DNA of 64,000 nt from Symbiobacteriaceae bacterium (GTDB lineage Bacteria > Bacillota > Sulfobacillia > Symbiobacteriales > Symbiobacteriaceae): assembly GCA_029239785.1 (NCBI GenBank), contig JARBUG010000010.1, positions 287 to 64,286 on the forward strand, given 5' to 3'. Positions 19,147 to 43,071 of this stretch are shown here, one piece after another. Below the pieces are notes generated by a model that saw only the letters and a program-made list of their open reading frames with translations, made no database searches and was not told where the DNA came from. Made by a program: the position numbers and the translations under genes. Each line of letters begins with the position of its first letter. Position 1 is the first letter of the stretch.

Positions 19147-19152
19147 GGTTCG

Positions 19153-19265: not shown

Positions 19266-19337
19266 GGGGACCACTCCCCCTACAGGTTTACCTGATTTGT
19301 CAGACACCTCGTATTATAGCACAGAGGGTCTTGCCAC

Positions 19338-22173: not shown

Positions 22174-22186
22174 AGCTGGTCCCCTC

Positions 22187-28369: not shown

Positions 28370-28435
28370 AAAGGGCAGCAGCCTCCTCAGATTTCAAAAC
28401 GAGGTCGGCTGGCCCCGCCACCGGACGGGGGCACG

Positions 28436-28468
28436 CGAAAAGACCATGGGTCGGAATCCCCATGGTCT
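28436..28468 (-). terminator. Leader attenuator terminator of ABC-F gene 1
   Basis: AGACCAUGGGG-auuccg-ACCCAUGGUCU followed by UUUCG. The stem is conserved with 30441..30466. Confidence 0.6.
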
Positions 28469-28568
28469 GTCAGTGGCGTGCTTACAAATGCGCGCACCGC
28501 AGGCGGGACCGGCCTTTCTGGGGTGACGGGTACGCCAAAGAAACCGCGTACGGGTCACCGGTATCCAG

Positions 28569-28592
28569 TTAGAGCACGGTCGTCTTTTTCAT
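28569..28592 (-). CDS. 7-codon leader peptide MKKTTVL
   Basis: GGAGGU lies 9 nt before the ATG. Same length and position as the leader ORF of the paralog. Confidence 0.5.
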   Translation of the reverse strand: MKKTTVL

Positions 28593-28634
28593 TGCTGCGG
28601 TACCTCCGCCTTTGTGGCAACAATCTCTTTCATC

Positions 28635-28663
28635 ACTGTACGCAAATGGCCGGCTCCAGTCAA
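28635..28663 (-). promoter_or_regulatory. SigA-type promoter of ABC-F leader 1
   Basis: TTGACT, 17 nt spacer, TACAGT. Confidence 0.45.
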
Positions 28664-28686
28664 CCGGACGGAATGAGTTGATTCGT

Positions 28687-30387
28687 TCAATCCGATCGGC
28701 GGTTCTCTTTCAGTTGGCGCAGTTCACGGCTCACCGCGATGAACTCCTGGTCGAGCCGCTCCTTCTCCTCGGGCTTTGGCGCGATCAGCGCCGCCGACAA
28801 CTGGGCGAGGCGGTTCTCCAGCAGCAGCCGCCGCTCCTCGTCGGCCTGGCGGCCGGCATGCTGAGCGGCATCCGCCCGCCCGAGGAATGCTTCATACCCG
28901 CCGCTGAACGACGTGACCCGCGCGCCCTCCACATGCAGCACCTTCGAAGCCAGCTTCCGCAGCAAATACCGGTCGTGCGAGACCAGCAGCAGCGTGCCGG
29001 GGTAGCCTTCCAGCGCCTCTTCCACCCGCTCGCGGGACGCCAGGTCGAGGCCGTTGGTCGGCTCGTCGAGGACCAGCAGGTCGGGACCTGCCAGCAGAAT
29101 CTTCGCCAGCGTCAGCCGGATCTTCTCCCCGCCGCTAAGGACCGACACGGGCTTGAGCACCTGCTCCCGGGAAAAGAGCAGGCAGCCCAGCAGCGTGCGG
29201 ACGTAGGCCTGATCCATGGCCTTGTTGCCCCCCGTCACCTCGGTCAGGACGGTGTTTTCGGGGTTCAGGTGCTCCATCTCCTGGGCGAGATAGGCGACCC
29301 GCAGGGGCGAGCGGTAGAGCGTGCCTTCGGTCGGGGCCAGTTCGCCCAGAATCAGGCGGACCAGCGTCGACTTGCCGGAGCCGTTCGGCCCGATAATGGC
29401 CACCTTTTCGCCTCGCTGCACATAGAACCCGGCGTCACGGAAGATCCAGCGCTGGCCGTCATAGGTGAAGCCGAGGCGCTCGGCCAGGATCAGGTTGCGG
29501 GCGGCGCCGCCGGCATCATCCATGCGGATGTTGATCCGGGTCGCTTCCCGGGGCTTCTCGACCTTGATGCGCTCCAGGCGCTTCTCCATCGACTTGGCGA
29601 CCTGCATGTGCGCCTTGGCCAGGGCGCCCTGGTAGGGCCGCCAGTTGGGCGGCGCATCGTGCGGGGGCTTGAAGTTGACGTTAGCCTGCGCCCACGAAGT
29701 CTGGCGGCGAATCGCTTCTTCCAGGTGCTTCTTCTGCACCACGTACTGCCGGTACTCCTCCTGGGCCCGCTCCAGTTCCATCCGCTTCTGCTCGGCGTAG
29801 GCCGAGTAGTTGCCGGGGTACTCCTTCACCTTGCCGTTCTCCATCTCGATGATGCGGGTGGTGACACGGTCCAGGAAGTACCGGTCGTGGCTGACGACCA
29901 GCACGCTGCCCCGGTAGGAAGTGAGCAGTGACTCCAGCCAGGCCAGGCCCTCGGTGTCCAGGTGGTTGGTGGGCTCGTCGAGCAGGAGCACGTCCGGCGA
30001 GCGGTGGAGCGCACGGGCCAGGGCGGCCCGGGTCTTCTGGCCGCCGCTCAGGGCGCCGGGTTTGCGGGAGAGCATCTCCCGCGTGATGCCGCAGCGGGCG
30101 AGCAGGGCGTCGGGAATGGATTTGAGCTGCCGGCCCAGGGTCTGGCCCGGGTCGAAGGGCGCCTCCTGGCTCAGGTAGGCCCGGGAGAGGCCATCGGTCA
30201 CCCACCGGATGGACCCCGACCCGTGCGCCAGCTCGCCGGCGAGGATCTTCATGAGCGTTGATTTTCCGCACCCGTTGGTGCCCACGAGGCCGACCCGCTC
30301 ACCCCCGGCCACGTGAAACGTGACGCCGCCGAGCACGGGAGCGCCTTCATATTCCTTGATCAGATCACGTACTTGCAGAACCATCAT
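28687..30387 (-). CDS. ABC-F family ATPase (paralog, ARE-like)
   Basis: ATG 30387 (MMVLQVRDLIKEYEG). GTNGCGKST/LSGGQKTR and GPNGSGKST/LSGGEKIR. The track start at 30534 reads into the leader. Confidence 0.9.
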   Translation of the reverse strand: MMVLQVRDLIKEYEGAPVLGGVTFHVAGGERVGLVGTNGCGKSTLMKILAGELAHGSGSIRWVTDGLSRAYLSQEAPFDPGQTLGRQLKSIPDALLARCGITREMLSRKPGALSGGQKTRAALARALHRSPDVLLLDEPTNHLDTEGLAWLESLLTSYRGSVLVVSHDRYFLDRVTTRIIEMENGKVKEYPGNYSAYAEQKRMELERAQEEYRQYVVQKKHLEEAIRRQTSWAQANVNFKPPHDAPPNWRPYQGALAKAHMQVAKSMEKRLERIKVEKPREATRINIRMDDAGGAARNLILAERLGFTYDGQRWIFRDAGFYVQRGEKVAIIGPNGSGKSTLVRLILGELAPTEGTLYRSPLRVAYLAQEMEHLNPENTVLTEVTGGNKAMDQAYVRTLLGCLLFSREQVLKPVSVLSGGEKIRLTLAKILLAGPDLLVLDEPTNGLDLASRERVEEALEGYPGTLLLVSHDRYLLRKLASKVLHVEGARVTSFSGGYEAFLGRADAAQHAGRQADEERRLLLENRLAQLSAALIAPKPEEKERLDQEFIAVSRELRQLKENRRSD

Positions 30388-30435
30388 ACAGGGCAACGCC
30401 TCCGAGTTTGGGCTCTGCCCGCCTGCTTGACAGCA

Positions 30436-30466
30436 CAAAAAGACCATGGGCAAGTACCCATGGTCT
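30436..30466 (-). terminator. Leader attenuator terminator of ABC-F gene 2
   Basis: AGACCAUGGG-uacuug-CCCAUGGUCU followed by UUUUGUG. Confidence 0.65.
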
Positions 30467-30561
30467 GTTGGTTTGCGCGCTTGCAACCGTGCGCAACGCA
30501 GACGGGACCGGCCTAACTTGCGCGACGAACCCACTTCGGTAGGTGCCGTCGCCGTATACAG

Positions 30562-30585
30562 TTAGCGCGCGGTGTTGTTGATCAC
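30562..30585 (-). CDS. 7-codon leader peptide MINNTAR (GTG start)
   Basis: GGAGGU lies 8 nt before the GTG; 8 codons including the stop. Confidence 0.5.
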   Translation of the reverse strand: MINNTAR

Positions 30586-30608
30586 GTCTGCGTACCTCCG
30601 GCTTTGCC

Positions 30609-31253
30609 TCAAGATTTCACTTCATGATATGCCGCCGGGGCGTAGCCTGTCAACAGGGAGAGCGCCAGCACCAAGACCCAAAGCTCAAACCCGCCAATCG
30701 TCATCCGTTCGAAGATGCCGAAGTAGGGCGATTTCAGGGCCATGCCCGCCGTCGACATGCCGCCGGTGATGAAGACGAAGAGGGCGTTCCACACGGCGAA
30801 CCGGCGCAAATGCTGGAGCGGCAGGTAGCGCCGGGCGCCGGCCCCGGTCAGGAGCATCGTCAGGATGGTGAGAACGGCGGTGCCGAGGGCGAGGATCAGG
30901 TGAACGGTGCCGGCGGTGGTCGGGGCGCTGCCGATGGGGTCCTGCGGGAAGAAGTACATGAGCAGGCTCAGAATCGGTACGACGGTAAGCGCCAGGGCGG
31001 CCCCGACGAGGGTGCCGGGGCGGCGGGCGGCGGTGACCTCCCGGAGCAGGCCGGCGGCAAAGGCGAGGAGCAGGCAATTATAGAGGATGAAGCCGGGGTC
31101 GATCTTCCAGCGGAGCGGAGCGCCCGCCTCGACCAGTGAGCTGATGGCGTGGGCGACGTGGCTGTAGCCCGGGGTAATGGCGGCGCCATAGATGACGGTA
31201 ACGACGTAAGCGATGGGAGCCAGGATGCCGCAGGTCAGGTAAAGCTTGCGCAT
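30609..31253 (-). CDS. Polytopic membrane protein, DUF998-like
   Basis: 214 aa. AAAGGAGA RBS. The N-terminus ...AITPGYSHVAHAISSL resembles the DUF998 signature. Confidence 0.55.
   Translation of the reverse strand: MRKLYLTCGILAPIAYVVTVIYGAAITPGYSHVAHAISSLVEAGAPLRWKIDPGFILYNCLLLAFAAGLLREVTAARRPGTLVGAALALTVVPILSLLMYFFPQDPIGSAPTTAGTVHLILALGTAVLTILTMLLTGAGARRYLPLQHLRRFAVWNALFVFITGGMSTAGMALKSPYFGIFERMTIGGFELWVLVLALSLLTGYAPAAYHEVKS
30624..30653 (-). promoter_or_regulatory. SigA-type promoter of ABC-F leader 2
   Basis: TTGACA, 18 nt spacer, TATCAT, overlapping the 3' end of the upstream CDS. Confidence 0.45.
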
Positions 31254-31286
31254 GGTGATACGTCTCCTTTGATGTGGCGGCCCCGC

Positions 31287-31754
31287 TCAGCTCCGAGCGA
31301 ACCGCAGGCGAAGCTGCTGGGCCAGTGAAAGGTGGTGGGGCTTGGACAAGAGGTACTGCAGCGCCAGGGCGAGCACGGGGTTGGCGAGGGTGCTCATGCT
31401 GAACGGGCTGCTGCCCATGAGGAAGATGATGCCCATGATCAGGCCCACCTGGGTGCGGCGCCCACTTGCAAGGATGAGCAGGCCGACGGTGGTCTCGTAT
31501 GCGACAGCGATCACGCCGAAGAGGACCGGTGCGGCGCCAACGAGATCCGTGAAAATGGTGCGGTAGAACGGAATGAACGATCCGCTGCCCAGGCCTACGA
31601 AGGAAGGCGGGTCCATCAGTGTGATGGTGAAGTTGACGCCCCAGGCCATAAGCAGGAAGAAGATGCCGAGAAAGATGCGGCCGGCGTTGGGCTTCCAGAG
31701 TGCGAGTGCCAGGATGGTCGCGTAAACGAGCAGGGAGACGAGCAACTGTTCCAT
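31287..31754 (-). CDS. 4-TM membrane protein, unknown function
   Basis: 155 aa. A GGAGGA RBS is embedded in the end of the upstream gene. Confidence 0.6.
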   Translation of the reverse strand: MEQLLVSLLVYATILALALWKPNAGRIFLGIFFLLMAWGVNFTITLMDPPSFVGLGSGSFIPFYRTIFTDLVGAAPVLFGVIAVAYETTVGLLILASGRRTQVGLIMGIIFLMGSSPFSMSTLANPVLALALQYLLSKPHHLSLAQQLRLRFARS

Positions 31755-31760
31755 GGTGGG

Positions 31761-32168
31761 TTATCCTCCAATCAAATAGAGCGATCCGTCGGTCAGGCGA
31801 TAGATGGTGGAACCAAGGGCGGCGATCTCCGGGTCGGCGGTGGCGAGGATGACGGTTCGGGCCACCGGTACGCTTTGGGTCATGGCGTGGGTGGGTTCGT
31901 CAAGCAGCAGCAGATCGGGCTGCAGGTCGTTGGTGGTGAGGCCGGTGATCAGGCGGCCTTCGTAGTACAGGTCGCCGTGTGTGGGCGGCTCCTGAAGTCC
32001 CAGAATCCGGAGCAGGGTGCTCTTGCCGGCGCCCGGGGCGCCCAGAATGGTGATGAAGTCGCCGGCGTAGATGCGGAGGTCGATGTTGCGCAGTGCCCAG
32101 ACGGGGTCGGGGCCGTCGGGGCGGTGGACCTTTGCGATGCGGCAAGCCTGCATGAGCAGCTTCCGCAT
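31761..32168 (-). CDS. Internally deleted mini-ABC ATPase (Walker A and Walker B retained; Q-loop, signature and most of the H-loop region missing)
   Basis: GAPGAGKSTLLRILG and LLLLDEPT lie only ~35 aa apart. There is no LSGGQ. The start is uncertain (ATG 32168 or 32153; the track gives 32198). Confidence 0.55.
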   Translation of the reverse strand: MRKLLMQACRIAKVHRPDGPDPVWALRNIDLRIYAGDFITILGAPGAGKSTLLRILGLQEPPTHGDLYYEGRLITGLTTNDLQPDLLLLDEPTHAMTQSVPVARTVILATADPEIAALGSTIYRLTDGSLYLIGG

Positions 32169-32176
32169 GGGCGGTT

Positions 32177-32248
32177 TCACCGGGCTGCCGGCGCCCACCC
32201 GTAGATGGCGGCCGGCAGAGTGGCGAGGTTGCCGATGATTGCTTTCAT
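32177..32248 (-). CDS. 23-aa peptide ORF MKAIIGNLATLPAAIYGWAPAAR
   Basis: GGAGG lies 9 nt before the ATG. It is the first ORF after the repeat-containing promoter. Below the ORF-track cut-off. Confidence 0.4.
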   Translation of the reverse strand: MKAIIGNLATLPAAIYGWAPAAR

Positions 32249-32279
32249 GTGTTTGCGCCTCCGTGTGTGATCTGGGTTC

Positions 32280-32322
32280 AGATTAAGGGAGGGCGCTGAA
32301 CAAGTGCTGAAGGAGCGCTGAA
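32280..32322 (-). promoter_or_regulatory. Promoter with three direct TTCAGC(G/A)C repeats at 11-bp periodicity (SARP/OmpR-type activator site)
   Basis: Minus strand TTCAGCGC tcc TTCAGCAC ttg TTCAGCGC, starting at 32322, 32311 and 32300. The heptamer TTCAGCG ends 8 nt before TAATCT (32285..32280). Confidence 0.45.
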
Positions 32323-32357
32323 AAGAGAAAACCGCACCCATGTTCAGTGGGTGCGGT
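32320..32357 (-). terminator. Intrinsic terminator of the ABC-exporter operon
   Basis: ACCGCACCCA-cugaaca-UGGGUGCGGU followed by UUUCUCUUUUC. The stop codon lies in the loop. Confidence 0.75.
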
Positions 32358-34110
32358 CGCCCTCCAGGATGGCCCGGAACTCATCGGAAGCGGCCAGCAG
32401 CTGCGGGGCGGTACCGATCATCTCCACCCGCCCCTGGCTCATCAACAGAATCTGATCTGCCGCCTCCAGCACCGCCGGCCGGTGGGAGACCGCCAGGCAG
32501 GTTGTTTCTTTGCGCGCCCGCAGCCGCTCCCACAGTTTCTCCTCCGTCTCCTCATCCAGGGCACTGGAGAGATCATCAAAGACGAGCAGCTCCGGTTCCC
32601 GCACAAACATGCGGGCGGCGGCAGTTCGCTGCACCTGCCCGCCCGACAGCTTCACGCCCCGGGCGCCCACCTCGGTCTCCAGCCGTTTCTCCAGACCTGC
32701 CACATCCTGCTCCAGCACGGCGGCGTGCACGGCCCCGGCCAGATCAGCCTCCGCCTCGGGCAGCCCGAGCAGAATGTTCTCCTTCAGCGTGGCGCTGAAG
32801 AGCACAGGCACCTGCGGCGTGTAGCTGCTAATGGGCGGCTGGAAGAACGAACCCGGGTGGTCAACCACGCGGCCGTTCCAGTGCACCGCTCCACCCTGTG
32901 CGGGCAGCAGCCCCAGCAGCGCCCGCAGCAACGTGCTTTTCCCGGAGCCAACCCGGCCGGTGATCACCGTCAGCGTGCCGCGGGTGAGCGTGAACGTGGC
33001 CCCCCGGACGCCCCGCCCCGAGTCCGGGTACTCGTAGGTCAGGTCCTCCACCTCCAGCCGGTTCAGCCGCTCCTCCGGCTGAAGTGAGCGCCGGTGGCGC
33101 TCCGGCAGGGGAGTATCCAGATAGAGCGGGCTATGCGCCGCCAGGGCCACAGCCGGCGCATCCTCCAGCAACGCCTGCATCCGCCGTAAGGAGACACCCA
33201 TCTGCTTGTAACTGGCCAGCAGATCGCCTACGACGCCGGTAAACCCCGCCAGCCGCCCGACATAGGCCGCAAACAACGCAAAGTCGCCCACAGTAAAGGT
33301 GCCGGACCGCATCGATCCCGCCGCCAGCAACAGTACCAGGCCCGTGCCCAGGTTGGCGGTGTTCAGATAGACCGACCGGAGCAGCTCGGTGAACAGGCTG
33401 TCCTGCACGGCATGGGCCCGCCGCTGGTCTCCCAGACGGCGCAGGTGGCCGGCCACGTTCGCCTCGGCGCCGGCCAGCTTCAGCGCGGGCACCATGGTGA
33501 AAATCTCGCCGAGCATCCCCGTCACCCGGGCGGCGGCGGTCCGGCTCCGGTCGCGGTACCGGCCGATTCGCTGTCCCGCAGCCTTTGCCACAATCATCAC
33601 CCCGACGAGGGGCAGCACGGCCGCAACCGTCACAAACGCGTTGATATGTAGCATGAGCCCCAGCGTGACGCCTGCGCTCAAGGCCTCGGCGACGGCGCTG
33701 ATCACTGTGATCATCGAAGCGAACAGCGCTACGGCGTCGGCATCGTCGCGAAAGCGGCTGATCGCATCGCCGGTCGACCCGGGCAGGGCCCGGGCGCCGG
33801 GCCGGCGCAGGATCTGCTCCAGCATATTGGTAGTGAGCAGTGCGCTGACCGTAAAGCGCTGGAGCACACTGACGGGCACGCTGAGCCAGGTAACCAGCAG
33901 GCGCCCGCTCTGCACGGCGACGGGCAGCACGGCCAACAGCCAGAGGCTGTCTAGAGCCGGTGCGCTGCCCGACAGGGCATTGAAGAAGGACCGGGCCACC
34001 AGACCGAGCCCGGTCGGCGTCAGGGAGATCAGCACCCAACTGAGAAAGCAGGCGGCCACCAGCCAGGGCCGGTATGCCAGCAGGCGGAGCACAGTTCGCC
34101 ACGGTTTCAT
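32344..34110 (-). CDS. ABC exporter, fused TMD-NBD subunit
   Basis: 588 aa. GRVGSGKSTLL, LSGGQVQR and LLVFDDLSSALD, with an N-terminal 6-TM domain. Confidence 0.9.
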   Translation of the reverse strand: MKPWRTVLRLLAYRPWLVAACFLSWVLISLTPTGLGLVARSFFNALSGSAPALDSLWLLAVLPVAVQSGRLLVTWLSVPVSVLQRFTVSALLTTNMLEQILRRPGARALPGSTGDAISRFRDDADAVALFASMITVISAVAEALSAGVTLGLMLHINAFVTVAAVLPLVGVMIVAKAAGQRIGRYRDRSRTAAARVTGMLGEIFTMVPALKLAGAEANVAGHLRRLGDQRRAHAVQDSLFTELLRSVYLNTANLGTGLVLLLAAGSMRSGTFTVGDFALFAAYVGRLAGFTGVVGDLLASYKQMGVSLRRMQALLEDAPAVALAAHSPLYLDTPLPERHRRSLQPEERLNRLEVEDLTYEYPDSGRGVRGATFTLTRGTLTVITGRVGSGKSTLLRALLGLLPAQGGAVHWNGRVVDHPGSFFQPPISSYTPQVPVLFSATLKENILLGLPEAEADLAGAVHAAVLEQDVAGLEKRLETEVGARGVKLSGGQVQRTAAARMFVREPELLVFDDLSSALDEETEEKLWERLRARKETTCLAVSHRPAVLEAADQILLMSQGRVEMIGTAPQLLAASDEFRAILEGDRTH

Positions 34111-35777
34111 CCTGCCACCACCTCCTCCGGGCCGGACTGGAGCGACAGGACCTGCCCGGCACGCCGCAGTGTCGACAGCCTGTGGGCAATAAGGATCGCT
34201 GTCCGGCCCAGGAGGAGCCGGTCGATGGCCTGCTCCAGCCGCTGTTCGGTAACGGGGTCGAGCCGGGAGGAGGCCTCATCCAAAATGACGAGGCCCGGAT
34301 CTTTCAGGAAGACACGTGCGAAGGCGAGCAGCTGGGCCTCGCCCGCCGAGAGGCCGCCGCCAGATGCCAGCTCGGTATCGAGGCCGTTAGGAAGGGAGGC
34401 CGCCCACTCCCGCAGGCCCAGCTCATCGAGTGCCGCCCAGATGCGGCTGTCGGCGACGGTGGCATCGAACAGGGTCAGGTTGTCGCGCAGAGTGCCGCGG
34501 AAGATCTGCACTTCCTGGGTCACCACGCCCACCCGCCGGCGCAGGTCGGCGAGGCGGACCGAGCGCACATCGACGCCACCGAGGCGGATGCTGCCGCCGA
34601 CCGGGTCATAAAGGCGTGCCACCAGCCGGGCAAGGGTCGATTTGCCGATGCCGGTCCGCCCCCGCACGCCCAGCACCTCGCCGGGCTTCAGGGCAAAGGA
34701 GAGGTTCTCGAGCACGGGCACCCCGGGGATATATCCAAATGTCAGGCGGTCGACTGCGAGGGCCAGCGGCCCGTCGGGCAGCGGCGCCCCCTCCCCGTGC
34801 ACCGCCAGAGTGCTGCGCATGGCCAGCAGGTCGCCAATCCGGCTGATGCTGGCGCCGGCCCGGGCCAGGTCCTGCATCTGTTGGACGATCTGTTCGGTGG
34901 GACGCCGGAGTTGCTCCGTATAAAAGAAGATCATGTAAGCAGTGCCGACCGAAATGGCGCCCGCCCGTACCAGCGCAAGCCCGACGCCAAAGGCCGTGGA
35001 CGTGCCCACCGCCAGCAGCCCGAAGGAGACGACCAGCATGATGGCCATGCCGCGGCCGGCCTTCAGCTCGGCCTGCAGCCGGGTGCGAAGTGCCTGTACA
35101 AAGCCCAGTCGGACAGCGTGCTCGGCGCCGTTGGCCCGAATCTCCTCCAGCCCCGCCAGCCGTTCGCCCAAATAGCCGAAGAACTGGCTGCTGGCCTGCC
35201 GGGACGCCTGCCAGCCGGGCATGGCGCTGTGCCGGGTGCGCAGCAGCACCGTCAGGTGAAGCGCGGCGAAGCCCGACAGTGCCAGACCCGCCCGCCAGTC
35301 CACCGTGTAGAGAACTGCCAGGACGCCGGCCAGCAGGAGTGCGTTGGCGGCCACCTGCACCACGAAGGCGGAGAAGAAGTTGGCCAGCGGGGTCACGTCG
35401 CCATCGATGCGTTCGATCATTTCGCCGGCGGTGCGGTCCTTGTGATAGGAGAGATCGAGTCCCAGGAGATGCTCGGTCAGCTCGGCGCGCAGTTCGTTGG
35501 TCGCCCGCCAGCCGATCTCCTGACCGAGATACGTGGCCCACAGCGCCAGCAGTTGGTTGGCGATGGCCAGACCCAGGAAGAGCGCTGCCAGGGCGAGCAG
35601 GCGCAGGCCCGGCGTACCGGCCCCCGCCTGGTCAATAAACCGCTGGAGAACCGTGGGATAGTAAAGTTGCAGCCCGATGCCAGTCAGCAGCAAAATTCCC
35701 AGCAGCAGTACTTTCGGCCCCTGCGGCCGCAGGTATCGGCGCAGCAGGCGCCAGTATTGGGTCAGGGGGATCGACAT
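34107..35777 (-). CDS. ABC exporter, fused TMD-NBD subunit (heterodimer partner)
   Basis: 556 aa. GRTGIGKSTL, LSAGEAQL and LVILDEASSRLD. ATGA overlap with the downstream partner. Confidence 0.9.
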   Translation of the reverse strand: MSIPLTQYWRLLRRYLRPQGPKVLLLGILLLTGIGLQLYYPTVLQRFIDQAGAGTPGLRLLALAALFLGLAIANQLLALWATYLGQEIGWRATNELRAELTEHLLGLDLSYHKDRTAGEMIERIDGDVTPLANFFSAFVVQVAANALLLAGVLAVLYTVDWRAGLALSGFAALHLTVLLRTRHSAMPGWQASRQASSQFFGYLGERLAGLEEIRANGAEHAVRLGFVQALRTRLQAELKAGRGMAIMLVVSFGLLAVGTSTAFGVGLALVRAGAISVGTAYMIFFYTEQLRRPTEQIVQQMQDLARAGASISRIGDLLAMRSTLAVHGEGAPLPDGPLALAVDRLTFGYIPGVPVLENLSFALKPGEVLGVRGRTGIGKSTLARLVARLYDPVGGSIRLGGVDVRSVRLADLRRRVGVVTQEVQIFRGTLRDNLTLFDATVADSRIWAALDELGLREWAASLPNGLDTELASGGGLSAGEAQLLAFARVFLKDPGLVILDEASSRLDPVTEQRLEQAIDRLLLGRTAILIAHRLSTLRRAGQVLSLQSGPEEVVAG

Positions 35778-35789
35778 GGCCGGTTCCTC

Positions 35790-36821
35790 CTAACGGGCGG
35801 GGTGCGGTTCCTCGCCAGGGCCATCCAGAATGCGGCGGGCCGCTTCGATCCCATCGGCCGGGGCCACCCATTCGCCCGGCTGCCTGACCCATGGTTCAGT
35901 CACATAGAAGGGCTGCTTGAGAAAGGCCTCCAGGCGCTCGCCCCGCCGGTAGGTCAGCACTTCGGCGTCGGGAATGCGCTCGATGCCGCGCACCCGGGCC
36001 AGGGCGTGCAGTTCCCGGTACCGCCGGTAGAGCCTGCGGGCCCGCTGCTGGAGCGTCATGTGCGTCTGGTCGGCGTAGGCCCCTTCGAGGATGATCGATG
36101 TGGAGCCAACCGGGTCGATGGCCGGGAAGACGCTCCGGGCCGCCAGGTCGGCATCGAAACGCCAGAGTGTCTCCAGGGGGCCGTAGGGAACCTCTTCATC
36201 CGGCGACTCGCCGCGGGGGTCGACCAGTGCGAAGGTGACCGCATGGCCCGCCCCCCCGGCGAGGCGGGCACGGAGTTCGTCCAACTCCCCGGAAAGGACC
36301 ATCGCCCGGTCGGTCGCCACGAGGACTTCTCTGTCTTTCTGCCAGGCCTTGACCTGTTCTTCCGCCGCCGCCAGGGAATGGGCCACCACCTCTGCTTCGG
36401 GGAGGACGTCCTGAAGGTCAGGATGAAACTCGGCGGGCAGCCAGAGCACCGTGCCATACCCACGCTGGCGGAGCCGGTGGAGCAACTCGGAGAGCACGAC
36501 CATCTGGCCCATGCCTGTGCGGGCGACCAACCCGACGGTGCCCCCCCGCACCAGTGGTGCGAACAGGTCGATCACTTTGATGCCCGTCTCGACCATGGTG
36601 GAACCGGGCCCCCGTATCACCAGGTCGTCCAGCGTGCACCCGGCCAAATCGGCCAACGCGACCAGGGTTCGGACTTCGGCACGCCCGAGCGGAATCTTGC
36701 CGTTGCACAGGTCGGAGACGGTTGCGGAACGCAGGCCCACACTGCGGGCGGCCACCGTCAGGTTCGGGACCAGGCGCCGCAACAGTTGTACGTTGAGTTG
36801 CAGGTCATCAGCCAAGACCAA
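35790..36821 (-). CDS. XRE-type HTH fused to a degenerate F1-ATPase beta-subunit-like domain
   Basis: HTH: SVGLRSATVSDLCNGKIPLGRAEVRTLVALADLAG. Beta-like blocks: ETGIKVIDLFAPLVRGGTVGLVARTGMGQM (P-loop GGAGVGKT lost), SVFPAIDPVGSTS and FLKQPFYVTEPW. Start is probably TTG 36821 or 36815. Confidence 0.75.
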   Translation of the reverse strand: MVLADDLQLNVQLLRRLVPNLTVAARSVGLRSATVSDLCNGKIPLGRAEVRTLVALADLAGCTLDDLVIRGPGSTMVETGIKVIDLFAPLVRGGTVGLVARTGMGQMVVLSELLHRLRQRGYGTVLWLPAEFHPDLQDVLPEAEVVAHSLAAAEEQVKAWQKDREVLVATDRAMVLSGELDELRARLAGGAGHAVTFALVDPRGESPDEEVPYGPLETLWRFDADLAARSVFPAIDPVGSTSIILEGAYADQTHMTLQQRARRLYRRYRELHALARVRGIERIPDAEVLTYRRGERLEAFLKQPFYVTEPWVRQPGEWVAPADGIEAARRILDGPGEEPHPAR

Positions 36822-36848
36822 CCCCCCCTTTCCTCTGTAGCGTAACTC

Positions 36849-36858
36849 AACGTACGTT
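36849..36858. promoter_or_regulatory. Perfect 10-bp palindrome AACGTACGTT (candidate operator)
   Basis: It lies between TTGCAT (-35-like) and TACGCT (-10-like), upstream of the HTH-beta gene. Confidence 0.3.
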
Positions 36859-36897
36859 ACAATGCAATCCCATTGAAAGACATAGCTGCTATGCGCG

Positions 36898-36924
36898 AAA
36901 AAGACCGCCGGAATGCCGGCGGCC
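36898..36924 (-). terminator. Intrinsic terminator after the STAND-SARP gene
   Basis: GGCCGCCGG-cauu-CCGGCGGUC followed by UUUUU. Confidence 0.7.
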
Positions 36925-36938
36925 CTCGTCACGGCCTG

Positions 36939-39683
36939 CTAGTCCAGCAGCCGTCGGTAGAGTTCCTGGGTGCGGGGGCCGGGTTCGAGGCCCAGTTCAT
37001 CGTCGAGCAGGCGGGCGATGGTGCGGTATTGCTGGAGCGCCGCACTCCGATTGCCCAGGGCGGCGTAGGCGGTCATGAGGCCGAGGTGTGCTTCTTCATC
37101 CAACGGGTCGACTTGCAGCAGGAGTTGCAGCGCTTGGGCGGCGTCAGCGTGGCGGGCGGCGGCGGCGCAGTGGACAGCGATTTGGCGCAGGGTCTGCTGG
37201 TAGAGCAGGCGGGCGCGGGCACGGGGCGCCGCTGCCCATGGGTAGTCGAGTCCTTCGGCCAGGTCGCCGCGGTATAGGTCGGCCGCCTTTCGCCAGTCGG
37301 TTTCCGCTTCGGCAGCAGCGAGTTGTTCAAACTGCTCAATGTCAACCGTCAGGTTGGTGCGCTCCATGCGGTAGGCTCCGCCGGCGAAGGTGACCAGCCC
37401 CTCGCCCGGGGCGCCCAGGGTGGAGCGGAGGTTGTAAAGCGTGGTGTGGAGCAGGGTGCGGGCGGCGTCGAAGTCGAGGTCGGGCCAGAGGGCTTCGATC
37501 ACCTGGTCGCGGGGGATGGGGCGGCTGCCCTGCAGCACGAAGTAGGCGAGCAGGTCCCTTGCCTTGGTGGTGCGCCACCGGGGCAGGGGGCGCCCGCCGA
37601 TGGTGACGGTGATGGGGCCCAGCAGGGAGACGGTCAGGCGCGGGGTGGTGCTTTCAGCAGCAGATGCGGAGCCGGGGGCTGGGGTTGTGGCTGCGGCCCC
37701 GGCTCCGGCGGGCTCGGCGGTTGCTGCGGCGGGTGTTGCCCGCAGCAGGGCCTGATAGGCCAGGAGCGCAGCGTCCCTCACCGCAGGGTCATCATCATGC
37801 AACAGGCTGCGGACCGCCTCCGTCGCCGCTTCCCCTCCGGTTACGGACAACGGATAGAGTGCAGCCTGCCGAGCCCGGGGCTCTGGCTGACGGGTCATCT
37901 CCAGGAGCGCCGGCAGCGCCCGCCCACCCATCCGGATGAGTAACTCCTGGCAGAACGGTGCCTCCACGCCCCGAGCCAGGGCGTCCGCAATCAGCCCCGC
38001 CGCCGCCACACGGGGAGCGACCAGGTGCTGCAGATACCCTTCGGCCGCGGCGTATCCCAGCGCCCTGTCAAACGAGCGCCGGGCCTCATCCAACTTGCCT
38101 TCGGCCCAGGCCTTGCGGGCAAAGAGCGTCAGTAGATAATGCAGATAGAAGTTCGCTTCGATCGATGAATGATAGGCAAACGAGGCGACGAGCAGGCGCT
38201 CGGCCGCAGCGTGGTCGCCCCAGGCGACCAGCGCAGCCGCCAACACCATGCCGGTGCAGGCTTCCAGAAAGCGGAACCGGCCACGGGCGGTTCCATAGGC
38301 CGCTTCGGCCAGGCGCCGGAAGGTGGGCATATCGCCGCGGGTCGCCGCCACCAGCGCCCGCTGGCAGGTGGCGGTGATGCCGATGGGCAGGTTGGCCGAG
38401 AAAGTCTGGTGGAGACGCTCGGCCTCGCTTAGGTGCTCCTCTGCCTCCTCAAGGCGGCCCCGGTCCAGAGAGACCTCTCCATAGGTCAGGTGGGCCATGG
38501 CCAGGGCGGTCAGGTCGCCCCGGTTTGCCCGGGCCTCCAGGCAGCGGCGGGCCAGGGCCTCCGCCTCGTCGAGGCGTCCCTGATCGCGCAGGAGGATGAC
38601 TTTGCTGTGGGCGCCCGCCAGTTCGAGCATGGGGTCGATCTCAAACGCCTGCCGATACCACTCCGTAGCGAGCGCGTACTGCCCCAGCACGACGCTGATC
38701 TCCCCCAAGAGCATGGCGGCTGCGGCCATGACGGGCCGGTCGCCGCGGCCCCGGGCGGCGTCCCATACGACGGTGGCCCGCTCGCGGGCCGCGGGCGGGT
38801 GGTCGCAGTAGAGCATGTGAATCTCGCCCAACTCGGTCCAGAGTTGCTCGGCGCCAGGCTGTCCCACGGAGAACTGGTGGGCGAAGGCTGTGAGGCTGAG
38901 GTTGCCGGCGAGCCATTCGCCCACCAGGCTCTTGGCAATTTCGGTGGGGACGTGGCCGGGCAGTTCGGCCAGCATCCGGGAGGTGATAGCTGGCCGCCAG
39001 CCGGCGCCGTGCTGGCGCCAGAGGTCCAGGGCCAGGGGGAAGCCGCCCGTTTTGGTCCAGCACTCTTCCCAGTCGGACTGGGCGCCCAGGAGCGCCGACG
39101 CCTCCTGCCGCGTGAAGGCCAGGTCGGCTGCCAGCAGGGTGCGGCAGTCGGCGCCCGGGTCGACGGGAAGGGGCGCCCGGGTGCTGAGGAGAAGGTGGAG
39201 TTCAGGCGGGGCGTAGCGGAGGAGTAAGGTCAGGAAGTCGGCGAGCCAGGGCTGGCCGAAGGCGGCCTCCAGGCCGTCGAGGGCGAGGATGATGGGGGGG
39301 CGGACGGCGGCCTCGGCGACGAGGTCGGCGGCGAGGTCGGCCACCGGGGCCGGGGCCACCGGGGCCGGGGCCACCGGGGCCGGGGCGCCGACCTCGGGCA
39401 CTGCCCAGTCCGGCCAAACCCGTGCGAACGCCGCACCCAGATGCACGACCAGGGCGCCCCCGCCCTCCCTGTCCTGCGCATCCAGCCGGTAGTAAACGAA
39501 GGGCAGCCCAGTGGCAGGCAACCACTGGGCCAGGAATGCGGTCTTCCCTGCGCCGGCCGGCGCTTGCAGCAGCAGCGCCCGGGGCGGGGCGCCGACGGCA
39601 TCGAGCAGCCGCGGCCGAGGGAGATACCCTGCGCAAGATGGGAGCATCAGCTTGGTGCGAAAGATCCGCTGCACGACGTTCAC
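36939..39683 (-). CDS. MalT-like STAND ATPase - TPR - HEAT - C-terminal SARP (OmpR-type wHTH + BTAD) regulator
   Basis: N-terminus RTKLMLPS..PRPRLL..LLLQAPAGAGKTAFLAQW. HEAT-like LLHDDDPAVRDAALLAY. C-terminus LLGPITVTIGGRPLP..KARDLLAYFVL..LYRGDLAEGL..AHLGLMTAYAALGNRSAALQQY (SARP/BTAD hallmarks). Confidence 0.8.
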   Translation of the reverse strand: MNVVQRIFRTKLMLPSCAGYLPRPRLLDAVGAPPRALLLQAPAGAGKTAFLAQWLPATGLPFVYYRLDAQDREGGGALVVHLGAAFARVWPDWAVPEVGAPAPVAPAPVAPAPVADLAADLVAEAAVRPPIILALDGLEAAFGQPWLADFLTLLLRYAPPELHLLLSTRAPLPVDPGADCRTLLAADLAFTRQEASALLGAQSDWEECWTKTGGFPLALDLWRQHGAGWRPAITSRMLAELPGHVPTEIAKSLVGEWLAGNLSLTAFAHQFSVGQPGAEQLWTELGEIHMLYCDHPPAARERATVVWDAARGRGDRPVMAAAAMLLGEISVVLGQYALATEWYRQAFEIDPMLELAGAHSKVILLRDQGRLDEAEALARRCLEARANRGDLTALAMAHLTYGEVSLDRGRLEEAEEHLSEAERLHQTFSANLPIGITATCQRALVAATRGDMPTFRRLAEAAYGTARGRFRFLEACTGMVLAAALVAWGDHAAAERLLVASFAYHSSIEANFYLHYLLTLFARKAWAEGKLDEARRSFDRALGYAAAEGYLQHLVAPRVAAAGLIADALARGVEAPFCQELLIRMGGRALPALLEMTRQPEPRARQAALYPLSVTGGEAATEAVRSLLHDDDPAVRDAALLAYQALLRATPAAATAEPAGAGAAATTPAPGSASAAESTTPRLTVSLLGPITVTIGGRPLPRWRTTKARDLLAYFVLQGSRPIPRDQVIEALWPDLDFDAARTLLHTTLYNLRSTLGAPGEGLVTFAGGAYRMERTNLTVDIEQFEQLAAAEAETDWRKAADLYRGDLAEGLDYPWAAAPRARARLLYQQTLRQIAVHCAAAARHADAAQALQLLLQVDPLDEEAHLGLMTAYAALGNRSAALQQYRTIARLLDDELGLEPGPRTQELYRRLLD
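39341..39385. repeat. 3 x 15-bp in-frame tandem repeat (APAPV x3) inside the regulator gene
   Basis: CCACCGGGGCCGGGG repeated three times. Confidence 0.9.
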
Positions 39684-39744
39684 CTACCTGTTGTCGTGCA
39701 GATTCTCCTTTGGGCATCAAGTCCCTGCCGGTACCCGGAAAAAA

Positions 39745-39940
39745 GCTATCGGTCCGTTTTTGTACAGCTTGACGCACCAGATTTGCTCAGGTTCGGACTG
39801 ATGAAGGCCGCAGACGCAGCAATCGCCCTCACGGGGACGAGCTTTCACCTCATCGGAAGGGCAGTTATTGCGTCTGCGGCCTCGATCGATCCATTTGCGT
39901 CCAGATGCGTCAAGAGACGTGGACTCAAACGGACCGAAGC
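39745..39940. repeat. Long palindromic element, copy D of the ATCGGTCYGTTTTT family
   Basis: ~85-bp imperfect inverted arms (ATCGGTCCGTTTTTGTAC...GAAGGCCGCAGACGCA / TGCGTCTGCGGCCTC...CAAACGGACCGA) around a ~40-nt spacer. Confidence 0.75.
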
Positions 39941-39994
39941 ATACGCATCCCTACGGTGCAGTCGGCTGACAGCTTGTTTGGCGCCCTGCCGGGC

Positions 39995-40498
39995 CTACAT
40001 CTGCCCCGTCGTAATCTGGATCACCTGGGTCTGGGCCACCACAGCCTGCGCCACCGCATTCACGACCGATTGGATATCGGCCAAGAGCTGCTGTGCAGCC
40101 GCCAAGCCAACGGCGACGGCGCCGCCCATCGCCTGGGCTTGCGTCAGGAGTTGCTGCACGGCACGCAAGGTCGCATTCAGGCTGGCCCGCGCCTGCGCCA
40201 GCACGTTGGCAATTTGCATCTGCCGGGCCCGCACCCGAATATCGATGTCACCCCGGATGCGCACCATCGCCTGCTGCATCTGCCGGACCCGGGCCTGCAC
40301 CACGGCCTCCGCAGCCTGCTGGACCTGTAGGGAGATCGCCTGCAACTGCTGCGCTGAGAGCGCAACGTTGGACTGCCCCGCGGCCTGGGCAGCGGCAATC
40401 GCCTGCTGAAGGGCCTGGACGGTCAGGGAGAGGCTGCTCTGCGCCTGGGCGAGAAGCGCGACCACCTGCATCTGCGTGATGTTGATGTTGAGGTTCAT
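39995..40498 (-). CDS. 167-aa Gln/Ala-rich protein with an internal duplication, unknown function
   Basis: ATG 40498 after AAAGGAGG. MNLNINITQMQVVALLAQAQSSLSLTVQALQQ... Two ~55-aa repeats flank RVRQMQQAMVRIRGDIDIRVRARQMQ. No Lys, Cys, aromatic or Pro residues. Confidence 0.65.
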   Translation of the reverse strand: MNLNINITQMQVVALLAQAQSSLSLTVQALQQAIAAAQAAGQSNVALSAQQLQAISLQVQQAAEAVVQARVRQMQQAMVRIRGDIDIRVRARQMQIANVLAQARASLNATLRAVQQLLTQAQAMGGAVAVGLAAAQQLLADIQSVVNAVAQAVVAQTQVIQITTGQM

Positions 40499-40616
40499 GG
40501 CAGCCGGGCCTCCTTTCAAGGCATGATGGAGCCCGTCCGTATCAGCATATGTGCAACCTGAGGGTTCGGCCCCCATACAGAAAAGCGCCCACCTGCCTAA
40601 TGCAGGTGGACGCTTC

Positions 40617-40862
40617 GACGGTCCGTTTTTCTGTGGCGCTGGCGGAGGGCTCTCCGTCTGTCTTGATCGATTGCAGGAGGAATCGGTTGAAAGAAATGGA
40701 CGGAGACGGCGCATGGCAGACGGTCATCAGCAAGATTAGCCGATTTTCGACCCGTTTTTGGAGCGATTTCTACTCCACCAGTGCCCCGTCAGCCCGGGCG
40801 ACGCCGTGCTCCGTCTCTCTTTTTCGGTGAGCACCGGGGCCAGCCAAAAGAAACGGACGGAG
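40617..40862. repeat. Cluster of CCGTCYGT...ACGGACGG hairpins (same repeat family flavour)
   Basis: CTCCGTCTGTCTTGATCGATT / AATCGGTTGAAAGAAATGGACGGAG and CTCCGTCTCTCTTTTTCGG / CCAAAAGAAACGGACGGAG, plus GACGGTCCGTTTTTCTGT. Confidence 0.6.
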
Positions 40863-40942
40863 GCGGGGCGACACGGCGGCCCGGCGGCCCGGCGACCCTG
40901 GCCCGGCGGCCCCGGCCCCGGCCCGGTGGCGCCAGCGTCGCC

Positions 40943-41908
40943 CTACCCCCAGTAGGGCGCCCGGTCCGGGGCCACCGACGGCCCCGTCACCAGCCTGGCC
41001 CCCTCGGCGGCCAGACCCAACATCAGCGACCTCGCATCGCTGCCGGCCCACGCAAAGGCCCCCTCCATCGCCCTCGCCACCGGCTCGGCGTGCCCCGGCT
41101 CCACGAACGCAATCACACTCGGCCCGGCCCCGCTCAGCGCCACACCCTTGGCCCCGGCATCCAGGGCCGCCTCAAAGACCGCCCGCAGCCCCGGCACCAA
41201 CGACGCCCGGTACGGCTGATGCAGCCGGTCCTGCGTCGCAACACCCAGCAAATCCACCCGCCCCTGGGCCAGCGCCGCCACCAGCAGCGCCGTCCGGTTC
41301 AAGTTGTAGACCGCGTCCTTCAGCGACACCTCGGTCGGCAGCACGCCCCGGGACTTCTCGGTCTTCTTCCCGGTAATCGGCAACTCGGGCATCACCACCA
41401 CGGCCCGCAGGGCCCGGGGCGGGTCGAAGCGCACATGCAGCGGTCCCCGAACCTCATCCATACAAGATACCGTAAAGCCCCCGACCATCGCGGGCGTCAC
41501 ATTATCGGGATGCCCTTCAATCGCCACGGCCATCCGGAGCAGCTCCTCCCGGTCCAGGCCCGGGCGCCCGGTCATCTGCTCCACCAGGGCGTTGGCCGCC
41601 ACCAGGCCGCCCACGATGGCGGCAGCGCTGGAGCCCATGCCCCGGGCGACGGGAATGGCGACCTGCTCGGAAATCCGCAGCCCGTGCGGCTGATAGCCCA
41701 GCCGGTCGAAGACCCGCAGGGCTGCCTGATAGACCATGTTGCTCTCAGGTCGCAAAAGCGCCTCGTGCTGCTGGTCGACCTCAATCACCACATCGAGGAT
41801 GCCCGTCTCTTCCATCTCGATGACGTTCCGCAGTTCGAGCGCGACGCCCAGCGTGTCGAACCCCGGGCCCAGGTTAGCGCTGGTGGCAGGCACAGTTACC
41901 TTGACCAT
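40943..41908 (-). CDS. thrB: Homoserine kinase
   Basis: [18 protein letters not shown] and GMGSSAAAIVGG motifs. Confidence 0.9.
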   Translation of the reverse strand: MVKVTVPATSANLGPGFDTLGVALELRNVIEMEETGILDVVIEVDQQHEALLRPESNMVYQAALRVFDRLGYQPHGLRISEQVAIPVARGMGSSAAAIVGGLVAANALVEQMTGRPGLDREELLRMAVAIEGHPDNVTPAMVGGFTVSCMDEVRGPLHVRFDPPRALRAVVVMPELPITGKKTEKSRGVLPTEVSLKDAVYNLNRTALLVAALAQGRVDLLGVATQDRLHQPYRASLVPGLRAVFEAALDAGAKGVALSGAGPSVIAFVEPGHAEPVARAMEGAFAWAGSDARSLMLGLAAEGARLVTGPSVAPDRAPYWG

Positions 41909-43071
41909 CAGCCCAGCACCATCGCTTCCAGGGCGCCCAACTCCGCCTTCATGCGCAGCGGCGCTGCGGAGACCCGAATCGCCGTATCGGGATCCTTCAG
42001 GCCGTTGCCCGTCAGGACCGCCACCACCCGGGGCCGGCGCTGCCGTCCCGTAAAGGGCAGATAGCGGGGCGCCGGCGCCAAAGCGCCCTCAATGCGCCCG
42101 CCCGCGGCGTCGCCCTCGAAGTAGCCCGACTCGCTCAGCCGAATCAGCCCCGCAATCGAGGCACACGAAGCCGGTTCCGCAAAAACCCCTTCAGTAGCCG
42201 CCAGCCGCCGGTAAGCAGCCAGCATCTCCTCATCGGTGACGGCCCAGAAGGCGCCGCCCGACTCCCGGATGGCGTTCACCGCACCCTGCCGGGTCGCCGG
42301 CCGGCCAATCTTGATGGCGGTGCCCACCGTATGCGGATCATCCACCTCGCCACCGTTGACCAGCGGGGCGGCGCCCGCCGCCTGGAAGCCGAGCATCGTC
42401 GGCCCGGAGGCGAGCAGCCCGCCGCCGAAGGTGTGCTCCACGGCGCCGACGCCGAAGTCGGCGTACTCCTTGAAGCCCATCCAGTAGGCCGTTACGTTGC
42501 CGGCGTTGCCCACGGGAATCGCCAAAAAGTCCGGGTGGGCGCCCAGTGCGTCGACGATCTCGAAGGCCGCGGTCTTCTGGCCCTGGAGCCGGAACGGGTT
42601 GACCGAGTTGACCAGGGCGATTTCGGGGTGGGCGTCGGTCAGGGCCCGCACCAGCCGCAGGCCGTCGTCGAAGTTGCCTTCAATCTGGATGGTCCGGGCG
42701 CCGTACATGAGCGCCTGGGCCAGCTTGCCCATGGCCACCGCCCCATCGGGGATGACGACGAAGCAGGGAATGGACGCCCGGGCCGCATAGGCCGCCGCCG
42801 CGGCGCTGGTGTTGCCTGTGGAAGCGCAAATGACCGCCTTCGCCCCGGCTTCGGCCGCCTTGGACATCGCCATGGTCATGCCCCGGTCCTTGAAGGAGCC
42901 GGTGGGGTTGAGCCCTTCGTACTTGACATACAGGTCAATCCCCAGCTCCTCGCCCAGCCTGGGGCAGGGAATCAGGGGGGTGTTGCCCTCCAGCAGGGTC
43001 ACAACGGGAGTTCGATCCGTCACCGGAAGAAACCGACGATACTTCTGAATCAGACCTTGCCATGCGGGCAT
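41908..43071 (-). CDS. thrC: Threonine synthase
   Basis: PLP-lysine motif [10 protein letters not shown]. One-nt overlap with thrB. Confidence 0.92.

Follow-up and report, generated by a model that had tools for sequence, protein, structure and literature searches.

A conserved STAND-SARP regulator cassette with a reduced ABC operon in Symbiobacteriaceae, apparently interrupted by an unrelated HTH-F1beta/ABC exporter operon

Several described systems resemble parts of the locus analyzed here. Regulator-linked MacB/FtsX-type ATP-binding cassette (ABC) detoxification modules are known, for example, as the Bce-like, YknXYZ, and MacAB types, and heterodimeric type IV ABC exporters with one degenerate ATP site are represented by the BmrCD/TM287-288 type. 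RRNPP quorum-sensing receptors join an N-terminal helix-turn-helix (HTH) domain, or a phosphatase, to a TPR peptide-binding domain and have no NTPase. All described classes of SARP regulators (small, medium, large, and SARP-LAL) carry an N-terminal SARP domain (PMC10972967). Published SARP sites consist of direct repeats 11 or 22 bp apart, with 8 bp between the 3′ repeat and the −10 element, and SARP protomers bind them side by side over the −35 region, contacting sigma region 4 and core RNA polymerase (PMC10936776). Here, we analyze a nine-gene locus at positions 30609-39683 of a 64,000-nt stretch of DNA (the window) from a Symbiobacteriaceae bacterium (GCA_029239785.1, contig JARBUG010000010.1, positions 287 to 64,286), which encodes a one-component STAND-SARP regulator and contains a promoter with SARP-like direct repeats. 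All positions without a locus name follow the numbering of the window, and names of the form L001 denote comparison contigs.

The region is likely a composite of two independent units, a regulator cassette (A) and an inserted 4.6-kb operon (B). An earlier note on this DNA had proposed that the nine genes form one quorum-sensing or bacteriocin module, and as such this module does not exist. The inventory on which the proposal was built stands, with nine co-directional open reading frames (ORFs) all on the minus strand, two strong terminators, the direct repeats, a 23-codon ORF, a gutted ABC ATPase, and two membrane proteins, at coordinates that were right to within a few bases (Table 1). A division into three transcription units is also supported: the regulator (unit 1), an HTH/pseudo-ATPase with an ABC exporter pair (unit 2), and the repeat promoter with its downstream genes (unit 3). 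The expected conservation of the whole block survives for the regulator with unit 3, which stay together in 14 loci, and fails for unit 2, an insertion that is absent from the orthologous cassettes.

The two units come apart most plainly in the comparison with L086, whose cassette represents the empty site. In a blastn alignment, the break-points fall at window positions 36932 and 32356, with 4,575 bp between them, and both flanks are common to the two contigs at 76-87% nucleotide identity (ThrRS, a PALP enzyme, and a GHMP kinase on one side and DUF998 on the other). The hairpin, repeats, and operon of L086 lie within 11 nt of the regulator stop codon. A hairpin homologous to the one now found at the downstream end of the exporter genes directly follows the regulator stop in the uninterrupted L086, L177, and L081, and L176 also has a hairpin at the regulator-terminator position. 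The last codons of ABC_B, the second exporter gene, run into this terminator in the window, and the ABC_B stop codon sits in its loop. The inserted operon is absent from the cassettes of L177, L086, L081, L082, and L176, of which L177 is the window's sister in the regulator tree.

The inserted segment, in turn, is found elsewhere. It shares 80% nucleotide identity with L001 and 77% with L002, where the same three-gene operon stands in other contexts, and the terminator that now ends the regulator transcript is homologous to a hairpin upstream of the HTH/pseudo-ATPase gene (HTH-F1beta) in L002. In the metagenome-assembled genome (MAG) GCA_041690255.1, the HTH-F1beta gene is on one contig and the regulator cassette on another. 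By these alignments, the segment is an insertion between the regulator stop codon and the old regulator terminator, unrelated to the regulator cassette, and the terminator at its upstream end is best read as having arrived with it. At the ends of the insertion, no target-site duplication, inverted repeat, or transposase was seen, only a 6-nt GAGGGC microhomology.

Unit B was also approached from HTH-F1beta itself. A scan of one genome per species returned 404 encoding stretches, and the best 80 loci were searched with 10-kb flanks, using all window proteins as queries. This neighborhood search, which the earlier note had suggested, did not recover a conserved nine-gene block: the regulator, the short ORF, the small ABC ATPase (mini-ABC), the 155-aa protein, and the DUF998 protein are near HTH-F1beta in none of the 80 loci. 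The ABC pair lies directly downstream of HTH-F1beta only in L001 and L002 (2/80), both Symbiobacteriaceae and the closest of the set. Outside these two, HTH-F1beta has no neighbor conserved beyond closely related genera.

The same position of the cassette carries different DNA in three independent lineages, namely, the HTH-F1beta/ABC operon in the window (32357..36931), an alpha/beta-hydrolase gene in L091 (8750..10940), and an IS110 transposase with a saccharopine-dehydrogenase-like gene in L176 (8775..11855). Two of these inserts lie between the regulator and the target promoter and one just after the promoter; in L176, the −10 element and a motif of the 5′ untranslated region (TAGACTGA..CAGAC) are present on both sides of the insert.

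Seen from the side of the regulator, the arrangement is conserved. Neighborhoods were compared on the contigs of regulator orthologs and close relatives from a metagenome scan, which comprise 14 distinct loci, the window among them, and in all 14 the regulator is followed by an ABC-derived operon. In the window, L177, L086, L087, L081, L082, and L176, this operon consists of a short ORF or a 130-aa gene, the mini-ABC, and then, where the contig reaches, the 155-aa membrane protein (TM155) and/or a DUF998 or CPBP (Rce1-like) protein. L084 and L094 have a 114/133-aa membrane protein and the mini-ABC, L089 and L091 have the mini-ABC and a 105/133-aa membrane protein, and L088, L090, and L092 have an intact FtsX/MacB_PCD permease with a full ATPase of 236-237 aa. 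The FtsX permease is absent from the window and its clade. Regulator, repeat promoter, and unit 3 are a real conserved cassette, to date recorded from Symbiobacteriaceae alone. The distant full-length relatives of the regulator (29-34% identity; L095-L106 and L112) have no module protein near them, and the cassette as defined is therefore confined to the regulator family at identities of at least ~46%.

This cassette occupies a conserved chromosomal context (ThrRS, threonine-pathway genes, and ABC-F) in the window, L082, and L086 and a different one in L081, where it moved as a unit. In L081, it lies inside a stretch (7412..22595) bounded by two large serine recombinase genes and containing Mrr-like and CoiA nuclease genes. 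The stretch interrupts prkA, a sporulation-associated gene, leaving PrkA fragments on both sides, and has the look of an intervening mobile element.

The regulator starts with a MalT-like STAND NTPase (residues 18-199; NCBIfam MalT, E 3e-11) that has the Walker A motif GAGKT, followed by TPR_MalT (299-555) and HEAT (588-642) segments in Pfam/NCBIfam. Its C-terminus consists of an OmpR-type winged helix (Pfam Trans_reg_C, 705-773) and a BTAD domain (789-913, E 4e-23). In a phmmer search of the PDB, residues 670-913 match EmbR (E 1.5e-18) and the AfsR SARP domain (E 5e-12), in agreement with the original description of a STAND/TPR protein with SARP output; Pfam gives no GerE match, i.e., no LuxR/GerE-type HTH output. 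Among 23 regulator orthologs, G44, G46, and K47 never vary, and D136 is kept in at least 90%. About 24 full-length orthologs share 46-100% identity, all those with an organism name being from Symbiobacteriaceae, and the ratio of nonsynonymous to synonymous substitution rates (dN/dS) is 0.18-0.22. We treat the regulator as SARP-like for working purposes, yet its architecture would make it a variant outside the described classes, because its SARP domain (residues ~670-913 of 914) is C-terminal on a MalT-like scaffold and that of all described classes is N-terminal. No literature was found on SARP/STAND regulators in Symbiobacterium.

Two STAND-SARP paralogs, 57% identical, lie within 10 kb of each other in L084 (1378..4044 and 10001..12658), with a CPBP gene convergent to the second copy. 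More regulator paralogs occur in the same metagenome, and the family is therefore multi-copy per genome.

The promoter of unit 3 reads TTCAGCgctccTTCAGCacttgTTCAGCg-ccctccct-TAATCT, followed by GGAGG and then ATG. Its TTCAGC triple repeat has no mismatch and does not recur in the 64-kb window, where ~0.04 chance matches would be expected even with three mismatches allowed. The promoter region was read in 13 loci, all of which have three or four direct repeats, 11 bp apart in most; the exceptions are spacings of 22-23 bp in L084 and L094 and of 12 bp for one interval in L088 and L092. Across these loci, a TAnnnT-like hexamer follows the last heptamer after a gap of 8 nt, and the repeat sequence shifts with the regulator clade (TTCAGC, TTTAGC/TTGAG, or GTnAAGAG). 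By this geometry, which is that of the published SARP sites, the window element is a SARP-type promoter, as the earlier note had recognized. There is no second TTCAGC repeat site in the window and hence no sign that the regulator controls its own gene or unit 2.

By analogy with AfsR, signal- and ATP-dependent activation would let SARP protomers of the regulator bind side by side on the three TTCAGC repeats. The repeats would take the place of the −35 element, ending 8 bp before the −10 element, and the bound protomers would recruit RNA polymerase. The target operon (30609..32322) would derive from a MacB-type transporter cassette of the kind that distant regulator paralogs still appear to drive as intact pumps. 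Reduction in the window's clade would then have removed the permease, stripped the ATPase of its permease-contact subdomain, and cut the 130-aa first gene to a stump.

The mini-ABC matches only positions 1-50 of the ABC_tran profile in Pfam. It keeps Walker A (GAPGAGKST) and Walker B (LLLLDEPT) and is without the Q-loop, the helical subdomain, and the LSGGQ signature; its H-loop has changed from VTHNPE to ATADPE, with loss of the histidine. In the full ATPases beside paralogous regulators, the mini-ABC aligns to residues 1-82 and 165-230, with 40-46% identity in the N-terminal part. In ABC ATPases, the helical subdomain is the part that contacts the permease. Short relatives of the mini-ABC number only ~20 among 1.8 billion cluster representatives, the named ones coming from Symbiobacteriaceae, and its dN/dS of 0.27-0.55 indicates relaxed yet present constraint. 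A 157-aa paralog in L089 (8690..9163) has lost Walker A (GPPEAAHLK, not GPPGAGKS); its ORF is intact behind a canonical four-repeat SARP box, and it represents a more degenerate stage of the same protein.

The 23-codon ORF (MKAIIGNLATLPAAIYGWAPAAR), previously taken to encode a short hydrophobic peptide, is the deletion stump of a larger gene. L177 has an intact 393-nt gene between promoter and mini-ABC, which encodes a 130-aa membrane protein (MKALIGILLLAHGLVH...LLAAIYGWAPAAR) homologous to the first-gene products of L176, L084, L094, and L091. Nucleotide alignment to this gene reveals in-frame internal deletions of 321 nt in the window, 309 nt in L086, 270 nt in L082, and 294 nt in L081, which leave remnants of 20-40 aa with break-points that differ by lineage. 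In L087, the relic ORF is gone, and the ribosome-binding site and ATG are fused precisely to the mini-ABC gene. Local alignment of the short ORFs with the 105-133-aa membrane proteins of other clades, run with shuffle controls, gave no consistent signal of a relic; the intact gene in L177 proved it at the nucleotide level. The four deletions are most simply independent, since L177 is nested among the deleted lineages in the regulator tree.

All four deletions are in frame, for which the chance is ~1 in 81 if frame is irrelevant, and the window ORF ends 10 nt before the mini-ABC ATG, a start without a Shine-Dalgarno sequence of its own; in the other lineages, too, the stop is ~10 nt from this start. 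Given the preserved frame and a stop codon so close to this start, the stump is probably kept for translational coupling, delivering ribosomes to the mini-ABC. The WAPAAR/K C-terminus conserved in four lineages is the end of the 130-aa protein beside the mini-ABC start. As a peptide, the 23-aa window product has a hydropathy too low for a membrane helix or signal segment and no double-glycine leader; no processing enzyme is found at the locus, and the dN/dS of the relic ORF (~0.6-2) is uninformative.

TM155, a helical protein with about four predicted spans, matches no Pfam family. It has ~190 homologs with the KPNAGRIFLG motif; at Pfam E values up to 1, one of 24 homologs matches DoxX and two match DUF417, all weakly, and TM155 was not assigned to either family. 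Its model (mean predicted local distance difference test score, pLDDT, 92) is confident and helical, and the best PDB fold match, the DoxX-type protein NACHO/TMEM35A, is not significant (E 0.7, probability 0.91, TM score 0.51-0.59). Distant TM155 homologs, like that of L081, adjoin CPBP/Rce1-like genes. The DUF998 gene is conserved in L086, L087, and L176. The low dN/dS of both TM155 (0.19-0.30 in close pairs) and DUF998 (0.10-0.23) indicates that these genes are maintained. From the descent of the operon and the company of its membrane proteins, we infer a role in cell-envelope protection or detoxification.

A number of points weigh against this account of a maintained cassette with an operon inserted into it. 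The comparison loci are without exception MAG or metagenome contigs. The −10 elements are weak, and four parts of the account are what we infer: that the regulator binds the repeats, where transcription starts, that the relic ORF is translated, and what the membrane proteins do. L087 carries the exporter pair too, with a right-hand junction unlike that of the window: a different hairpin lies between ABC_B and the SARP box, and the opposite strand carries an additional 192-aa ORF (L087 3307..3885) with a weak FG-GAP match. Because this junction differs, the insertion has a more complicated history than one simple event. Relaxed constraint on the mini-ABC and the loss of Walker A in L089 may mean that the operon is partly decaying rather than functional. 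Finally, the envelope role has just two grounds, the MacB-type descent and the link of TM155 homologs to CPBP-type membrane proteins.

Taken further, the last of these concerns but one would make the target operon a non-functional, decaying remnant of a MacB-type cassette whose arrangement reflects recent common ancestry only. The stepwise loss of the FtsX permease, the helical subdomain of the ATPase, and Walker A in L089 would fit such a course, as would first genes that were lost or left as stumps, three lineages that tolerate insertions between regulator and operon, and mini-ABC dN/dS values reaching 0.55. We nevertheless consider it unlikely. The dN/dS of the regulator, TM155, and DUF998 is clearly below 1, and the ORFs remain intact in loci whose proteins are only 50-75% identical. 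Every promoter region read preserves the geometry while the repeats co-evolve with the regulator, the first-gene deletions all preserve the frame, and the cassette moved as a unit in L081.

An anti-phage abortive-infection system, in which the STAND sensor would switch on small membrane-damaging proteins, appears very improbable. The regulator does have a STAND/NLR-type architecture, the products are small membrane proteins, and in L081 the cassette shares its recombinase-bounded element with Mrr-like and CoiA nucleases. PADLOC, however, returned no specific matches, only generic ABC or P-loop ones; the chromosomal context is conserved in the window, L082, and L086; and paralogous cassettes drive ordinary MacB-type transporters, the regulator output being a transcription-factor domain and not an effector enzyme.

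We give next to no credence to the proposal that all nine genes are one circuit, in which the TPR regulator senses a 23-aa peptide that the ABC pair exports, for RRNPP-like quorum sensing or as a bacteriocin with immunity. In its favor, the ORF comes first in an operon apparently activated by the regulator, as positive feedback would have it, its C-terminus recurs in four lineages, and exporters and a TPR sensor are close by. Against it, HTH-F1beta and the exporter pair form an insertion absent from orthologous cassettes and occur in L001 and L002 without peptide or unit 3, the ORF is a lineage-specific deletion remnant missing in L087 whose conserved end is just that of the 130-aa protein, and its hydropathy, its dN/dS, and the lack of a double-glycine leader, C39 domain, processing enzyme, and RRNPP receptor architecture at the locus all speak against it.

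With the locus read as a conserved cassette and a separate inserted operon, HTH-F1beta can be considered on its own. The listed 380-aa ORF is over-extended, and the real start is TTG at 36821 or 36815, with homologs beginning MADDLQ. Pfam finds HTH_26, ATP-synt_ab, and ATP-synt_VA_C in the protein, and the top 50 Foldseek matches to its AlphaFold2 model (pLDDT 73) are nearly all F1 beta subunits or F1-like ATPases (E down to 2e-15, TM score ~0.59). In the P-loop, G(M/x)GQ, glutamine Q106 replaces the Walker A lysine and is invariant in 27/27 aligned sequences. ABC_A and ABC_B are full half-transporters with overlapping genes, their ABC_membrane domains begin at residues 24-30, and neither matches a C39 peptidase domain in Pfam; a 12-nt gap separates HTH-F1beta from ABC_A in the window, in the same orientation. 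Unit 2 is an HTH/pseudo-ATPase followed by a heterodimeric ABC exporter, as first described.

Homologs of HTH-F1beta number in the hundreds, at 55-84% identity, in Symbiobacteriaceae, Paenibacillus, Bacillaceae, and Alicyclobacillus. Relatives occur at ~400 sites in the one-genome-per-species collection, those examined being from Bacillota. The inverted repeat GTAA-N6-TTAC (14 bp) is present in 73 copies within the 130 nt upstream of 58 of the 80 HTH-F1beta genes, a density of 7.0 per kb, ~370 times the 0.019 per kb found in the remainder of the loci, and solely with a spacer of 6. There are usually two copies, ~−45 and ~−90 from the start codon. In the window, such operator-like sites are not above chance, save for one upstream of HTH-F1beta. 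HTH-F1beta is probably an autoregulated DNA-binding pseudo-ATPase that represses its own promoter via GTAA-N6-TTAC. It is possible, if somewhat short of probable, that it represents an undescribed class of transcription factor with two GTAA-N6-TTAC operators, in which the F1-beta part serves as an oligomerization or ligand-sensing module (possibly for adenine nucleotides) and which controls the ABC exporter in Symbiobacteriaceae. No literature was found on this regulator. Downstream of the ABC pair in L002 (14510..16322), a long, structured-looking leader precedes an MgtE-like gene (N-terminus MRLTNHELETKLTELL...); this leader may be a magnesium riboswitch.

Around the locus, searches of 28000..42000 with Rfam (E up to 0.1) and for tRNAs gave no match and therefore no riboswitch or attenuator RNA. 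On the downstream side of the target operon, two adjacent ABC-F genes (26699..30534; 556 aa and ~560-615 aa) both align to the single ABC-F of the syntenic L082, pointing to a tandem duplication within the lineage of the window. An ORF immediately upstream of the regulator (39995..40714) is Q/A-rich, of low complexity, and in no Pfam family; it has 80% nucleotide identity to L086 6107..6613. The L086 call is 168 aa, and that of 239 aa in the window is probably too long.

Table 1. Features of the locus in window coordinates
Feature	Position	Strand	Basis
Terminator-like hairpin closing the target operon	30441..30466	both strands score	hairpin score
DUF998 membrane protein, last gene of the target operon	30609..31253	-	Pfam
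TM155, 155-aa helical membrane protein, ~four predicted spans, KPNAGRIFLG motif	31287..31754	-	homologs, model
Mini-ABC, 135 aa, MacB/LolD-type ATPase core	31761..32168	-	Pfam, alignment to full ATPases
23-codon relic ORF (MKAIIGNLATLPAAIYGWAPAAR)	32177..32248	-	alignment to the intact L177 gene
−10 element, TAnnnT type (TAATCT), 8 nt past the last heptamer	32280..32285	-	sequence
SARP box, three TTCAGC direct repeats with 11-bp period	32295..32322	-	sequence, comparison across loci
Ancestral regulator terminator	32330..32358	-	-24.6 kcal/mol, z -5.0
Inserted segment with own terminator, promoter, operator, HTH-F1beta, ABC_A, and ABC_B	32357..36931	-	blastn break-points
ABC_B, partner half-transporter, Walker B FDD rather than DE	32344..34110	-	Pfam, motifs
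ABC_A, half-transporter, degenerate signature LSAGE	34107..35777	-	Pfam, motifs
HTH-F1beta, Xre-type HTH and degenerate F1-ATPase beta-like domain (Walker A GMGQ)	35790..36821	-	Pfam, model, alignment
Promoter-like TTGCAT-17 nt-TACGCT of the HTH-F1beta operon	36839..36867	-	sequence
One-mismatch GTAA-N6-TTAC copy, overlapping the −10 of TTGCAT-17-TACGCT	36842..36855	-	motif search
Intrinsic terminator now ending the regulator transcript	36898..36924	-	-28.8 kcal/mol, z -4.7
Regulator, 914 aa, one-component	36939..39683	-	Pfam, NCBIfam, PDB sequence matches

The locus would extend SARP-type activation with textbook promoter geometry beyond the Actinobacteria and onto a MalT-like STAND scaffold whose output domain occupies the opposite terminus. 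Its 13 regulator-promoter pairs with co-varying repeats are a data set for SARP-DNA recognition. It also records the stepwise reduction of an ABC cassette, from a MacB-type pump to the mini-ABC, with the first gene cut to an in-frame stump four separate times, and it serves as a warning that short ORFs leading an operon can be relics retained for translational coupling and not signaling peptides. HTH-F1beta is a widespread, unstudied family with a clear candidate operator and is directly testable.

Compared with described systems, the locus has little in common with a class II bacteriocin locus, being without a double-glycine leader or a C39 exporter and with peptide and exporter not co-conserved. 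Like RRNPP quorum-sensing systems, it places a cytoplasmic TPR regulator beside a short ORF that starts with MK, continues with hydrophobic residues, and comes first in its operon. The receptor differs, however, in consisting of an NTPase, TPR_MalT, HEAT, and a C-terminal SARP domain, which is neither the RRNPP fold nor its domain order, and the ORF is a deletion stump, dispensable in L087, with which no exporter or importer is conserved.

The proteins of the inserted operon resemble two well-known types. HTH-F1beta shares with the F1-ATPase beta subunit the nucleotide-binding and C-terminal fold and a conserved PAVDPxxSTS-type motif. It departs from that subunit in that an Xre-type HTH replaces the N-terminal beta-barrel, the P-loop has an invariant glutamine in place of its lysine, and reading the family alignment by eye gave no equivalent of the GERTREG catalytic-glutamate motif; most of the 80 loci lack a conserved neighbor, and a palindromic operator lies upstream. 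The exporter resembles the BmrCD/TM287-288 type in its adjacent, overlapping half-transporters, with LSAGE in ABC_A and an FDD Walker B in ABC_B, and differs in that the exporter genes in Symbiobacteriaceae follow HTH-F1beta in the same orientation.

For the cassette itself, the regulator-linked MacB/FtsX-type modules are matched by L088, L090, and L092, where a dedicated regulator stands beside an FtsX permease and a LolD/MacB-type ATPase, and the window mini-ABC descends from that ATPase. The window differs in having no permease, a reduced ATPase, and a one-component STAND-SARP regulator instead of a two-component system. MalT/LAL-type STAND regulators share the domain order of NTPase, TPR_MalT sensor, and C-terminal DNA-binding output, whereas the output in the window is SARP rather than a LuxR/GerE-type HTH and the promoter has SARP-type geometry. 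AfsR and the large SARPs share the OmpR-type winged helix with BTAD, the combination of a nucleotide-binding oligomerization domain and a TPR sensor, and target repeats every 11 bp, the last 8 bp before −10, in place of −35; the afsS promoter has this same hexamer, TTCAGC, as the −35-like element within its upstream AfsR repeat. In contrast to these proteins, the window regulator carries its SARP domain at the C-terminus, has a MalT-like NTPase/sensor (TPR_MalT and HEAT) and not NB-ARC, belongs to a host in the Symbiobacteriaceae rather than the Actinobacteria, and has as its target the adjacent membrane/ABC operon instead of an antibiotic cluster.

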